This document shows positions 39,226 to 62,423 of a stretch of DNA of 64,000 nt, piece after piece. Source of the stretch: Brachybacterium sp. (GTDB lineage Bacteria > Actinomycetota > Actinomycetes > Actinomycetales > Dermabacteraceae); assembly GCF_052099115.1 (NCBI RefSeq), contig NZ_JBQDQS010000011.1. One strand, written 5' to 3'. The number at the start of each line of letters is the position of its first letter. Position 1 is the first letter of the stretch. The notes below the pieces were generated by a model. The model did no database searches. It saw only the letters and a list, made by a program, of their open reading frames with translations, and was not told the DNA's origin. The position numbers and the translations under genes are program-made.

Positions 39226-39373
39226 GGCGGATCACCCCGCACAGATGAGAGCTGAGCTACACTTCTGCGAGCCGGTGCGACGAAGCACCTCTTGTGGGAA
39301 CGACCTCGAACCGGCCGCTCATCACTTCACAACGGACCGTCCGGCACGTACCTGCCGGTGAAGGAGAACCACC

Positions 39374-58179: not shown

Positions 58180-58212
58180 GTGACTGCTCCCCGCACCTCC
58201 GCACCACTGTGA
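58180..58212 (+). other. Putative leaderless uORF (VTAPRTSAPL) coupled to the AEC transporter
   Basis: TAGGAT at 58167-72, 7 nt, GTG 58180; its TGA overlaps the transporter GTG (GTGA at 58209-12). Confidence 0.45.
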
Positions 58213-59135
58213 CCGGGGTCCTCGCCGGCTTCTTCATCGTCTGGTCCATGATCGGTGTGGGCTGGGTGGTGGGCCGCACCGGTGTGCTCGGTCCGCATGC
58301 ACGCTACGTGCTGAACCGGTCCACCTTCTTCATCGCCTCCCCGGCTCTGGTGCTGGTGGGTCTGCTCGGTTCCGAGGTGCGCGAGGTGCTCTCGCTGCCG
58401 ATGGCCGTGGCCGGCATCTCCGGGCTCGCCACCGGCGGGATCCTGATCCTGGTGGTGGCCCTGTTCACGAAGCGTCGCGGGGCCGACCTGGTCGTGACGG
58501 CCATCAGCGGCTCGGTGGTCAACGGGGCCAATATGGGCTTCCCCATCGCCCTCTACGTGCTGGGCGACATCTCCCACGCCCTGCCCGTGATCATGTTCCA
58601 GCAGGCGGTGTACACACCGTTGTACCTGTTCGTGCTGCACCGGGTCACCGAGGACGAGGCGCCGGGCTCCGCCGGCGTGCTGCGCAGCATCGTCGCCAAC
58701 CCCACGATCATCGCCTCCGCCGTCGGCCTGGTGCTGGTGCTGGCGGGCGTGAACATCCCGGACGTGGCGCTCGAGCCGGTGCGCTCGTTCGCGAACATGG
58801 CGATCCCGGCGATGCTGCTGGCCTACGGACTGTCGCTGTACGGCTCCAGGCCGCTGGCGAAGGACGACGGCTATCGCGGGCTGATCGCCCTCGCCTCGGG
58901 CTCGAAGCTGCTGGCGATGCCGGTGATCGCGCTGGGGGTGGGCCTGCTGCTCGGGATGCGGGGCACTGCTCTGTTCGAGGTCGTGGTGATGGCGGCGCTG
59001 CCCACGGCGCAGAACGTCTACGTGGCGGCGGCCCGCTATCGGGCCTCGGAGAATCTTGCCCGCGACACGGTGCTGATCACCACGATCGGCACCGTGCTGG
59101 TGCTGCTGCTGATCTCCGCAGTGCTCGGGGTCTGA
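58209..59135 (+). CDS. AEC (auxin efflux carrier)-family transporter
   Basis: About 10 TM helices; FFIASPAL, NGANMGFPI, MAIPAMLL, KLLAMP, AALPTAQNVY. Confidence 0.88.
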   Translation: MTGVLAGFFIVWSMIGVGWVVGRTGVLGPHARYVLNRSTFFIASPALVLVGLLGSEVREVLSLPMAVAGISGLATGGILILVVALFTKRRGADLVVTAISGSVVNGANMGFPIALYVLGDISHALPVIMFQQAVYTPLYLFVLHRVTEDEAPGSAGVLRSIVANPTIIASAVGLVLVLAGVNIPDVALEPVRSFANMAIPAMLLAYGLSLYGSRPLAKDDGYRGLIALASGSKLLAMPVIALGVGLLLGMRGTALFEVVVMAALPTAQNVYVAAARYRASENLARDTVLITTIGTVLVLLLISAVLGV

Positions 59136-59190
59136 GTGCTCGAGGTCTGAGTGCTCGAGGTTTGAGTGCTCGGGGTCTGAGCGCTCGAGG
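59121..59190 (+). repeat. 15-bp tandem repeat x4.7 starting in the last five codons of the AEC gene
   Basis: gtgctcggggtctga / gtgctcgaggtctga / gtgctcgaggtttga / gtgctcggggtctga / gcgctcgagg. Confidence 0.95.
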
Positions 59191-59268
59191 CCCGGGGGCT
59201 CGACGTCCGGGCCCTCGTCGCCCGGGTGCTCACCGGAGGCAGCGGCGCCGACGCGGTACGATGGCACG

Positions 59269-59334
59269 GTGACTGGACGGCTCCTGCTTATGCAGCCGCG
59301 TCGGACAAGGCCCACGCCCACCCCACGCTCCTGA
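59269..59334 (+). CDS. leuS leader peptide (21 aa, MTGRLLLMQPRRTRPTPTPRS)
   Basis: GTG 6 nt after TACGAT (59257-62); tandem Leu codons CTC CTG CTT at 59281-89; followed by a terminator before leuS. Confidence 0.78.
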   Translation: MTGRLLLMQPRRTRPTPTPRS

Positions 59335-59373
59335 GAGCGTGAGCGGTGAGCATGTGAGGCACCGATGCGGCTC

Positions 59374-59397
59374 CCCTCGCCTGCGCGAGGGTTTTTT
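59374..59397 (+). terminator. Intrinsic terminator in the leuS 5' leader
   Basis: ccctcgc-ctgc-gcgaggg followed by TTTTTT, about 60 nt before the leuS ATG; the only clear U-tract hairpin I noticed in the window. Confidence 0.85.
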
Positions 59398-59456
59398 CAT
59401 GTCACGAGACGCCTGGCGGCATCTGCCGCACTGATCCTTCGGAGGACGATTCATCC

Positions 59457-62423
59457 ATGAGCGAGGCCCCGCACCGATACACCGCCGACGTGGCGGACCA
59501 GATCGAGCGCCGCTGGCAGCAGCGCTGGGACGAGGACGGCACCTTCCACGCCGACAATCCTGTCGGTGAGCTGCGCGGCTCGGCCGAGTCACTCGAGGAC
59601 GCCGCAGCGGCGACGTCAGCCGCGGCGCCCGAGAAGATGTACATCATGGACATGTTCCCGTACCCCTCGGGGGCAGGTCTGCACGTGGGGCACCCCTTGG
59701 GCTACATCGCTACCGACGTGGTCGCCCGTCACCAGCGCATGTTGGGCAAGAACGTCCTGTACACGATGGGCTACGACGCCTTCGGGCTGCCAGCCGAGCA
59801 GTACGCCGTCCAGACCGGCACGCATCCGCGCACCACCACCGAGTCGAACATCGCCACCATGCGCCGCCAGCTGCACCGGCTGGGCCTGTCCCATGATCCG
59901 CGACGGACGCTGTCCACCACCGACCCCGAGTTCGTGAAGTGGACGCAGTGGATCTTCCTGCGCATCTTCGACTCCTGGTACGACCCCGAGGCACCGAACG
60001 CCGACGGCATCACGGGCCGGGCGCGCCCGATCGCCGAGCTGCGCGAGGAGCTGCGGGCGGGCACCGTGGACCCGTATGCCCTCGCCGAGCGGCAGGGCAT
60101 CGAGCTGCCCGCGGAATGGGCCGGTCGCAGCGCTGCCGACGTCATCGCGGCGTCCGACACCGAGCTGTCCGAGCTCGCGGATTCCTTCCGCCTGGCCTAC
60201 ATCTCCGAGACCCCGGTGAACTGGTGCCCGGGCCTGGGCACCGTGCTGGCCAACGAGGAGGTCACCGCCGAGGGGCGGTCCGAGCGCGGCAACTTCCCGG
60301 TGTTCACGCGTCGGCTGCGGCAGTGGAACATGCGCATCACCGCGTTCGCGGACCGGCTGATCGACGACCTGGACCGAGTGGACTGGCCGGAGTCGATCCG
60401 GGCGATGCAGCGGAACTGGATCGGTCGCAGCCACGGCGCACAGATCACCTTCCCCGTCTCCGGGTCGGCGATCGACGGTGGCGGCGTGGCGAGCTTCGAT
60501 GTGTTCACCACCCGCGCCGACACCCTGTTCGGCGCGACCTTCTGCGTGCTCTCCCCCGAGCACACGCTGCTGGCCGAGCCCTCGACGCTGCCCGCCCAGT
60601 GGCCGGCGGGCACCAAGGATGCCTGGACCGGTGGCGCGGAGGGCCCGCGTGCCGCGGTCGCCGCCTACCAGGCCCGGGCCGCCGCGCTGGACGAGGACGA
60701 GCGCACAGCCGATGACCGAGAGAAGACCGGCGTGTTCACCGGCCTGTTCGCGACGAACCCGATGGACGGCCGTGAGCTGCCCGTGTTCACCGCGGACTAC
60801 GTCCTGACCGGCTACGGAACCGGCGCGATCATGGCCGTGCCCGCCGAGGACGCGCGGGACTTCGAGTTCGCCGCACGCTTCGACCTGCCGGTGATCCGCA
60901 CCGTGCGGCCACCGACCGATTTCGAAGGCGGTGCCTGGACCGGCACGGGAGAGAAGATCAACTCCGCCAGCGCGGAGCTGGATCTGAACGGCCTGGACCT
61001 GGACGAGGCGAAGACGCGGGCCACCGCGTACGCCGAGGAACAGGGCTTCGGCCGCGCCCGCACCACGTTCCGGCTGCGCGACTGGCTGTTCTCCCGCCAG
61101 CGCTACTGGGGCGAGCCCTTCCCGATCGTCTACGACCCGGCCGCACCCGAGGTGCCGATCCCGCTGCCGGAGGAGATGCTGCCCGTGGACCTGCCGGAGG
61201 TCGCGGACTTCTCCCCCAGGACCTTCGACCCGGCGGACGCGGACACCGAGCCGCAGACACCGCTCTCGCGCGCCACCGAGTGGGCCGAGGTCGAACTGGA
61301 CCTGGGCGAGGGCCCCAAGCGCTACCTGCGCGAGACGAACACGATGCCGCAGTGGGCCGGCTCCTCCTGGTACCACCTGCGCTACATCGATCCCACCGAG
61401 GACGAGGTCCTGGTGCGCCCGGAGAACGAGCAGTACTGGCTGGGTACCCGCGAGGACGGCGGCGTGGGCGGGGTGGACCTGTACGTCGGAGGGGTGGAGC
61501 ACGCGGTGCTGCACCTGCTGTACGCCCGGTTCTGGCACAAGGTGCTGTTCGACCGCGGGGACGTCTCCAGCCAGGAACCGTTCCACCGCCTGTTCAACCA
61601 GGGGTACATCCAGGCCTTCGCCTACACCGATGCCCGCGGCGTCCACGTCCCGGCGGAGGAGGTCGAGGCAGGTGCCGACGGCACCTTCACCTATCAGGGC
61701 GAGCCCGTCACCCAGGAGTACGGGAAGATGGGCAAGTCGCTGAAGAACGCGGTGGCGCCCGACGACATGTACGAGGAGTACGGCGCGGACACACTGCGCG
61801 TGTACGAGATGTCGATGGGCCCGCTGGACCTGTCCCGGCCGTGGGAGACCCGCGCCGTGGTCGGCTCACAGCGCTTCCTGCAGCGGCTGTGGCGCCTGGT
61901 GATCGATGAGGAGACGGGTCATCTGGCCCTCTCCGAGCAGCCGGCGGATCTCGCCACGCTGCAGGCCACGCACCGGGCGATCGACGGGGTCGCCCGGGAT
62001 ATGGAGCGGATGCACTTCAACACCGCGATCGCGAAGCTCATCGAGCTGGTGAATCAGCTGACCAAGCAGCTGACGTCCACCGGGTCCACGCCGCGGGAGG
62101 CGGTCGAGCCGCTGGTGCTGATGGTCGCACCGCTCGCGCCGCACCTGGCCGAGGAGCTGTGGACCCGGCTGGGGCACAGCGGGAGCATCTCCCGCGTCGC
62201 CTACCCGGTCGCGGATCCGGAGCTGCTGAAGGCCGAGCGCGTCACCTGCGTCATCCAGGTCAAGGGCAAGGTGCGTCACCGCATCGAGGTGGATCCGGAG
62301 ATCGCCGAGGCCGATCTGGAGGCTGCGGTCATGGCCGAGGAGCGGGTCCAGGAGCTGCTGGAGGGTCAGACGGTCCGGAAGCTGATCATCCGGGCGCCGA
62401 AGATCGTGAACATCGTGGTGTGA
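59457..62423 (+). CDS. leuS: Leucine--tRNA ligase
   Basis: [14 protein letters not shown] (HIGH), editing domain [37 protein letters not shown]. Confidence 0.98.

Follow-up and report, generated by a model that had tools for sequence, protein, structure and literature searches.

A predicted leucine-sensing leader-peptide attenuator ahead of leuS in Brachybacterium, with relatives in several actinobacterial orders

The leucyl-tRNA synthetase gene of Brachybacterium (Dermabacteraceae) was studied in a stretch of 64,000 nucleotides (the window), which has a G+C content of 71%. DNA of the window was found in cheese, dairy, and food-fermentation metagenomes, and the nearest LeuS genes in a genome scan belong to Brachybacterium (76-87% identity). 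No tRNA genes are present in the window, and its only Rfam match is an msiK RNA (RF01747) at 39314-39372 (+), which scored 59 bits against a gathering score of 33. Directly upstream of leuS (ATG at 59457), and on the same strand, lies a leader element at 59269-59397. The preceding gene (58209-59135, same strand) corresponds to the 308-aa Mem_trans (PF03547) permease of related loci. The following features were recognized:

59257-59262, + strand: -10 promoter hexamer TACGAT, of the TANNNT type, 6 nt ahead of the start codon (sequence)
59269-59334, + strand: leader ORF, predicted to be leaderless, with a GTG start and 21 codons plus TGA; predicted transcription start at 59269
59281-59289, + strand: regulatory Leu codons CTC CTG CTT, the putative sensor (sequence and codon comparison)
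59294-59304, + strand: 5' arm of the long helix, AGCCGCGTCGG, with an invariant GCCG core from 59295, 14 nt past the first base of the first Leu codon (Leu-1) (fold and covariation)
59310-59360, + strand: variable interior of the long hairpin, with some compensatory changes within Brachybacterium (fold)
59324-59341, + strand: apical 7-bp hairpin (59324-30/59335-41) with loop CUGA; the leader stop codon (59332-34) lies in the loop (fold)
59362-59372, + strand: 3' arm of the long helix, CCGATGCGGCT, ending in invariant CGGC plus U (fold and covariation)
59374-59397, + strand: intrinsic terminator, 7-bp stem CCCTCGC-CTGC-GCGAGGG (59374-91) followed by T6 (59392-97) (terminator scan and fold)
59399-59434, + strand: second mini-ORF of 11 residues, its start codon 7 nt past the Shine-Dalgarno-like GAGGG of the terminator 3' arm
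59415-59427, + strand: small hairpin GGCGG-CAU-CUGCC in the read-through 5' UTR (read by eye)
59441-59446, + strand: Shine-Dalgarno sequence GGAGGA of leuS, 10 nt ahead of the ATG (sequence)
59457-62423, + strand: leuS, leucyl-tRNA synthetase, 988 aa, the presumed regulated gene (homologs named leucyl-tRNA synthetase)

A preliminary description of this DNA had placed TACGAT at 59257-62, 6 nt ahead of a GTG-started ORF of 21 codons carrying CTC CTG CTT, followed by an 11-bp helix, a 7-bp hairpin with the leader stop in its loop, and a GC-rich terminator with T6. All of these were found exactly where it had located them, and folding reproduces every helix. The gene downstream had been named leuS, an assignment borne out by the names of the homologs of the 988-aa ORF.

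The window sequence has no TANNNT box in the interval from the terminator to the leuS ATG; expression of leuS therefore appears to require read-through, either from the leader promoter or from upstream. The second mini-ORF lies on this read-through RNA. A start codon (ATG or GTG) exactly 7 nt past the G-run of the terminator was found in 14 of 21 loci scanned, plus L008 by eye (the loci named for this spacing are the window, L001-L004, L008, L012, L081-L083, L085-L089, L115, L121, and L165). The length of the mini-ORF varies from 2 to 31 codons across loci. In L003 and L012 it shares the reading frame of leuS, and in L001, L002, L004, L083, and L088 its stop codon overlaps the leuS ATG (ATGA). 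The sequence CATGTCA is kept in nearly all Brachybacterium loci, not in L081, and the fourth pair of the small hairpin is G-U in the window, A-U in L001, and G-C in L002 and L082. The second mini-ORF may couple translation into leuS on read-through RNA, and it may stand outside the switch discussed below.

The end of the permease gene is marked by a 15-nt tandem repeat (59120-59231; about 4.7 copies followed by degenerate copies), which reiterates the last five codons and the stop of that gene (GTG CTC GAG GTC TGA). One copy is present in L002 and L082, and an RNA contig of run X52 skips 59135-59252. The repeat looks like a strain-specific expansion.

The leader ORF of the window encodes the peptide (M)TGRLLLMQPRRTRPTPTPRS, a short product with a run of at least three leucines (MTGRLLLM...). 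Mini-ORFs that contain LLL and start with ATG or GTG 5-8 nt after a TANNNT box are rare: exactly one was detected on both strands of the whole window (128 kb). Terminator-like sites are likewise few (four on both strands of the whole window), and one of them adjoins the LLL mini-ORF; given these counts, the adjacency is not a matter of chance. Among the 1293 Leu codons of the window's high-GC3 ORFs, 7 (0.5%) are CTT, and leuS, with 83 Leu codons, has none. The codon CTT was found in 15 of 16 representative leaders, mostly as CTC CTG CTT. The Leu run is the sole coding feature kept in every lineage, while the remainder of the peptide varies. At the level of sequence, the strongest argument for a Leu run that is read and sensed is the retention of a near-unused codon at the one position where slow translation would have an effect.

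Downstream of the Leu run, AGCCGCGTCGG (59294-304) and CCGATGCGGCT (59362-72) form an 11-bp helix with a single G-U pair. The minimum-free-energy fold of 59269-59400 recovers all helices at -65.7 kcal/mol (z = -4.6), and none of 200 shuffled sequences folded as well. The terminator at 59374-97, a hairpin with a U-rich tract between the leader ORF and leuS, is the only terminator-like site in 58900-59700. A single nucleotide, C59373, separates it from the long helix. It had been remarked that the helix stops one base short of the terminator stem; this holds for the window, and the absence of overlap extends to the whole family described below.

RNA data were available as assembled metatranscriptome contigs of relatives, which were placed on the window and carry no strand information. 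In three metatranscriptomes, a close relative is represented by contigs whose first positions are 59276, 59278, and 59279, i.e., 7-10 nt inside the leader ORF and right after the adapter sequence, with zero depth over 59150-59268. These positions fit a transcription start at 59269, because libraries of this kind commonly miss several nucleotides of an RNA 5' end. The same contigs continue through the terminator into leuS, and contigs of two further runs also span the terminator, which shows that read-through RNA of the leuS leader exists in a relative of the strain. One low-depth contig (X43) reaches upstream of the promoter. The RNA 5' end near the predicted start and the read-through RNA are direct observations, as are the anatomy of the element, its conservation, its covariation, and its use of a rare codon. 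The leader starts (59269-59277) with GTGACTGGA, which we take to be the first nine bases of the Illumina TruSeq index adapter; adapter trimming could therefore clip reads at the true 5' end of the leader RNA.

Regions upstream of leuS were collected from the genome scan, from contig look-ups of relatives, and from a metagenome scan. The same element was found ahead of leuS in 21 further loci, giving 22 family members with the window. Twelve of these loci are of the Brachybacterium type (L001-L004, L081, L082, L085-L089, and L115). The other bearers are L121, Pedococcus (L165), Streptomyces (L083), Catellatospora, Actinoplanes (Micromonosporaceae), Geodermatophilus, Pseudonocardia, and two MAGs, so that element and leuS are conserved together in at least five actinobacterial orders. 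The distribution is patchy. In the metagenome scan, 7 of 80 LeuS relatives bear the element, and it is absent in the other 73 (59-67% LeuS identity). It is also absent in the Actinomycetaceae, Acidimicrobiia, Frankia, Actinomycetospora, and Paraoerskovia loci examined and in the AT-rich relative L084. Thirteen non-bearing loci were read, and ten of them (L090, L096, L100, L105, L113, L125, L131, L139, L153, and L160) have a box of the TAAACT, TAGCCT, or TAGACT type that lies about 20 nt upstream of the matched LeuS start and is followed, after 6-7 nt, by a GTG at or near the LeuS N-terminus. This arrangement suggests that leuS itself is leaderless in these ten loci, and that a leaderless promoter drives either a leader ORF or leuS directly, depending on the lineage.

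The permease gene lies on the same strand as the leader, and X43 runs from upstream into it; the hairpins might thus be taken as the terminator of the permease gene (58209-59135), with the ORF present by chance. The comparative data make such an origin exceedingly improbable. The element stays with leuS while the neighbor upstream varies (Mem_trans, GT87, YhhN, and others) or is divergent, and its -10 box, start codon, and Leu run are conserved. The ORF is moreover the only one of its kind in 128 kb, and the RNA contigs of three runs start at the leader. On the strength of this conservation we regard the permease-terminator reading as untenable.

Alignment of the leuS upstream regions, suggested in the preliminary description as a check, revealed that the helix covaries and that the Leu run is conserved across lineages. 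A TANNNT box stands 6-7 nt before ATG or GTG in 22 of 22 members. An Arg codon followed by the Leu run is conserved as well, the resulting R-L-L-L run nearly always including CTT. By computation, 13 of 16 representatives have the start of the GCCG core 14 nt past the first base of Leu-1, and a correction of the L018 anchor by eye makes this 14 of 16; the exceptions have 12, 12, and 17 nt. The four basal pairs (GCCG/CGGC) are invariant across the family. Compensatory changes (C-G to U-A, G-C to A-U or G-U, etc.) were found in 5 of 10 helix pairs, namely in five of the six that follow the basal four. In the helix alignment 95.7% of cells are paired, a figure somewhat favored by the choice of the arms, which were anchored on GCCG and CGGC; none of 500 shuffles matched the covariation score. 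The interior of the hairpin varies from 21 to 70 nt and is too variable for an alignment. The terminator is conserved in all members and lies 0-3 nt past the helix, never overlapping it (the gap was measured in 16 representatives).

Members differ in the position of the leader stop, which may lie just before the 5' arm (endings LLLP, LLLL, and LLLI), in or just beyond it (SEPC, IEPR, SQPH, and APH), or in the apical loop, as in the group of the window. In this group TAG has become CAG and the ORF is 14 codons longer; the helix base and the terminator are invariant, with few compensatory changes in the interior. It was also observed that the peptide ends in Pro-x-stop (EPC, QPC, RPC, EPR, QPH, APH, and APR) in L008, L011, L012, L013, L015, L083, and L165, and that such endings persist even where the frame relative to the helix is different (L011 and L015). 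Such endings might slow termination and so keep the ribosome on the 5' arm, or they might be no more than a consequence of the CCG in the GCCG core.

Leader-peptide control of leuS has been predicted before. Classical leuS attenuators, consisting of a leader ORF, an antiterminator (the upstream hairpin), and a terminator, were predicted for Streptomyces coelicolor and S. avermitilis (Seliverstov et al., 2005, BMC Microbiol 5:54, PMC1262725). Based on RNA-seq, leuL2, encoding MRAVRLLLSEPR, was annotated ahead of leuS in S. lividans TK24 as a leaderless ORF that has a hairpin and a run of U residues downstream (Droste et al., 2021, Front Microbiol 12:604034, PMC8079986). The Streptomyces precedent of a leuS attenuator with an RLLL-type leader, which had been mentioned in the preliminary description, is real: it was predicted in the first of these papers and annotated in the second. 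The Brachybacterium element shares with leuL2 its place directly upstream of leuS and its leaderless-type R-L-L-L mini-ORF (MRAVRLLLSEPR versus MTGRLLLMQPRR...). The Streptomyces locus L083, which encodes MRAVRLLLIEPR, has the same CTC CTG CTT, the same GCCG...CGGC helix in the same register, and the same CCCCTC/GAGGGG terminator with a U tract. Because position, ORF type, Leu codons, helix, and terminator agree, and because the Streptomyces locus is directly similar, the element is, as judged from its sequence, the Brachybacterium ortholog of the Streptomyces leuL2-leuS leader and a member of the leuS leader-peptide attenuator family. In Brachybacterium, in contrast to Streptomyces, a change of TAG or TGA to CAG has removed the stop codon in or before the 5' arm; the reading frame continues for another 14 codons, up to the stop codon of the apical loop, and the interior of the hairpin has grown to 57 nt. 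The older layout is kept by the relatives with short ORFs, L003, L004, and L081. The leuS element itself has thus already been described in Streptomyces; its taxonomic spread, the list of constrained features, and the family-wide separation of helix and terminator are new here.

Classical attenuators of this general kind are found in enterobacteria. Like the leaders of trp (trpL), of the leu operon (leuL), and of pheST, the leuS leader combines a peptide rich in cognate codons, rare codons among them, with an intrinsic terminator before the gene, and in pheST the controlled gene also encodes an aminoacyl-tRNA synthetase. The classical trp/his/leu type has in addition an antiterminator that shares bases with the terminator (2:3 versus 3:4), whereas in the leuS element no bases are shared. 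The 1:2 pause hairpin of the enterobacterial leaders overlaps the regulatory codons, while the leuS codons lie outside the helix, and the leuS leader mRNA differs further in being predicted to be leaderless.

Cysteine-responsive leaderless small ORFs are known in mycobacteria. In Corynebacterium, leaderless leaders precede trp, ilvB, and leuA (Neshat 2014, as cited in PMC8079986). In both cases, as here, a leaderless mini-ORF enriched in one amino acid stands upstream of a gene for the metabolism of that amino acid. In several of those leaders no terminator can be recognized, or the effect may be on translation; the leuS leader, in contrast, has a canonical hairpin and U tract.

T-box leaders control aminoacyl-tRNA synthetase genes in Firmicutes, and ileS in some Actinobacteria. 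They follow the same physiological logic, in that tRNA charging is sensed and synthetase expression is set, but the leuS element has no T-box or specifier structure, and its minimal members measure about 70 nt. No T-box was matched at E <= 10 in 58900-59700 or at the gathering threshold in the whole window, in agreement with the earlier view that leuS is not under T-box control. No Leu leader of Rfam was matched in 58900-59700 at E <= 10 either, and no Rfam family covers the element. The Rfam matches that did appear in this region at E <= 10 were at chance level; the anti-hemB match, for example, reached 19.5 bits against a gathering score of 49.5 and was driven by the terminator.

In the preliminary description, the locus had been read as an attenuator that controls leuS through the Leu codons of a leaderless leader ORF. 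The conservation with leuS across orders, the covariation of the helix, the retention of CTT, and the lack of an Rfam match all support that interpretation. We propose that the element is a ribosome-mediated, leucine-sensing transcription attenuator of leuS, with the long helix acting as an antiterminator that abuts the terminator, and consider this probable. Transcription would start at the GTG at 59269, giving a leader mRNA that has no 5' UTR and is translated at once. When Leu-tRNA is scarce, the ribosome would wait at CTC-CTG-CTT (59281-89). The helix (59294-304/59362-72) begins 13-14 nt past the first Leu codon and narrowly clears a ribosome that is stalled at Leu-1 or Leu-2, so that the GC-clamped helix could form behind RNA polymerase. 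With a ribosome standing at its foot, this rigid helix would hold the 5' arm of the terminator too tightly for it to enter the RNA exit channel. When Leu-tRNA is plentiful, the ribosome would run into the 5' arm, and in the window on to the stop codon at the hairpin tip; the helix would be excluded, and the terminator (59374-97) would stop most transcripts before leuS.

The register of the helix is consistent with this sequence of events. The ribosome protects mRNA to about +15/16 from the first base of the P-site codon, with the helicase at about +11. The GCCG core is at +18 when Leu-1 is in the A site, at +15 for Leu-2, and at +12 for Leu-3, so the helix can stand at the first two Leu codons and is touched only at the third. 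Further movement of the ribosome, toward a stop in or near the 5' arm, would be expected to melt it. Read-through in the presence of the helix is the most likely polarity; the register is that of a classical antiterminator, as the upstream hairpin was labelled by Seliverstov et al. (2005). With the 21-codon ORF of Brachybacterium, the basal part of the 5' arm lies free behind a ribosome that has reached the stop codon, so the helix would be excluded less cleanly in the leucine-replete state than it is in the short forms.

It had been argued that switching is not a simple 2:3/3:4 overlap, and this is upheld by the lack of shared bases in all 16 representatives. As helix and terminator have no nucleotides in common, the helix cannot act by competition for bases, and we infer that it would exclude the terminator sterically. 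Twenty family members were folded with a ribosome footprint kept unpaired, the A site being placed at Leu-1, Leu-2, the last Leu codon, or the stop codon. The terminator stayed formed under every ribosome mask, with a probability of 0.8-0.99 in most members. A switch made by RNA alone was rejected on this evidence, the terminator being kept in essentially all 20 members, and the alternative pairing with 59337-59351 that had earlier been considered showed no competition with the terminator in these folds. Several pairings noticed by eye were also set aside as too weak or not conserved: GUGAGG (59355-60) with CCUCGC (59375-80), GCGG (59367-70) with the terminator loop CUGC, a helix that would continue into the 5' arm of the terminator, and pairing of the helix 5' arm with the terminator loop and 3' arm.

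A likeness was observed between the Arg-Leu codon segment (59278-59289, CGGCUCCUGC) and the end of the helix 3' arm together with the terminator 5' arm (CGGCUCCCCUCGCCUGC). Pairing of the Leu-codon segment with the terminator 3' arm (59385-59391), as a second partner, falls short of the real stem by 4-10 kcal/mol in most lineages (by about 2 kcal/mol in L004 and L081) and was rejected. The segment is the best alternative partner of that arm in 6 of 13 lineages. The pyrimidine-rich character of Leu codons may explain this likeness.

The same observations bear on the possibility that the polarity is the opposite one, similar to trp 1:2. Here the long helix would be the default state and permit termination, and a stalled ribosome, especially at CTT, would mask the 5' arm and free the 3' arm or the G-rich interior to disturb the terminator. 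The register and known footprint sizes allow for this in part, because with CTT in the A site the leading edge of the ribosome reaches the outer 1-4 helix pairs. GAGG-like stretches are present just 5' of the 3' arm in several Brachybacterium loci, and in the short-ORF members L003, L004, L081, and L121 a stalled and a terminating ribosome are only 3-12 nt apart, so that dwell time instead of position could be the signal. With the 5' arm masked, however, no alternative partner beats the terminator, whose probability is 0.8-0.99 in 19 of 20 sequences, and the minimal members L121 and L013 have no G-rich interior. The helix also starts outside a ribosome at Leu-1 or Leu-2, not under it, unlike trp, and the four invariant basal GC pairs argue for a helix that resists invasion. 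We therefore consider opposite polarity rather unlikely.

A further possibility is that the helix is inert by itself and sets the stalled ribosome beside the base of the terminator, where the ribosome would block the hairpin; without translation the terminator would work fully. The invariant basal pairs, the tight 14-nt register from Leu-1 to GCCG, and the 0-3-nt gap, next to an interior that ranges over 21-70 nt, fit this arrangement well, as only the ends of the helix appear to be constrained. Against it, three members have a register of 12 or 17 nt, and the proposal is one of pure geometry for which we can cite no precedent. We consider this arrangement unlikely as well. The steric step in the favored attenuator model is drawn from geometry in the same manner and likewise comes with no precedent that we can cite. 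Leucine dependence and the polarity of the helix are, together with this step, the parts of the model that we infer.

Seliverstov et al. (2005) also mention that an exchange of the codons presumed to be regulatory in the ilvB leader of S. coelicolor was without effect; consequently, actinobacterial leader peptides cannot be assumed to work in the classical way. We found no report of leucine-responsive read-through, or other functional data, for a leuS leader of any species in the searched literature. Both points would suit a constitutive, partly efficient terminator with a mini-ORF that senses nothing, or a response to some other signal (growth rate or a protein factor), with Leu codons that are not regulatory, and no RNA switch was visible in the constrained folds. 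Such a role would leave a Leu run kept in every lineage, beside a peptide that otherwise varies, the retention of a near-unused CTT, and the fixed distance from Leu run to helix as points against it. We consider it very unlikely.

If helix formation does lead to read-through, the leuS leaders may use a kind of antitermination that has not been described for attenuators, in which the helix, with a ribosome at the 14-nt register, sterically blocks the terminator that it abuts. We offer this tentatively, and rate it as possible rather than probable. The block could arise because the terminator 5' arm is denied the slack needed to reach the exit channel, or because the stalled ribosome is placed next to RNA polymerase; in the latter case a ribosome 80-100 nt upstream in sequence would act like a closely coupled one.

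The leuS element, known before as a prediction and an annotation in Streptomyces, is extended here to Micrococcales (Brachybacterium and Pedococcus) and to several other orders. The comparative set defines what is under constraint in this family, i.e., the rare CTT, the 14-nt register between Leu-1 and the helix, the GCCG/CGGC clamp, and the 0-3-nt junction of helix and terminator. No member of the family has the competing base pairs of the textbook mechanism; these leaders may act by steric antitermination, or they may be conserved leaders which do not sense leucine.
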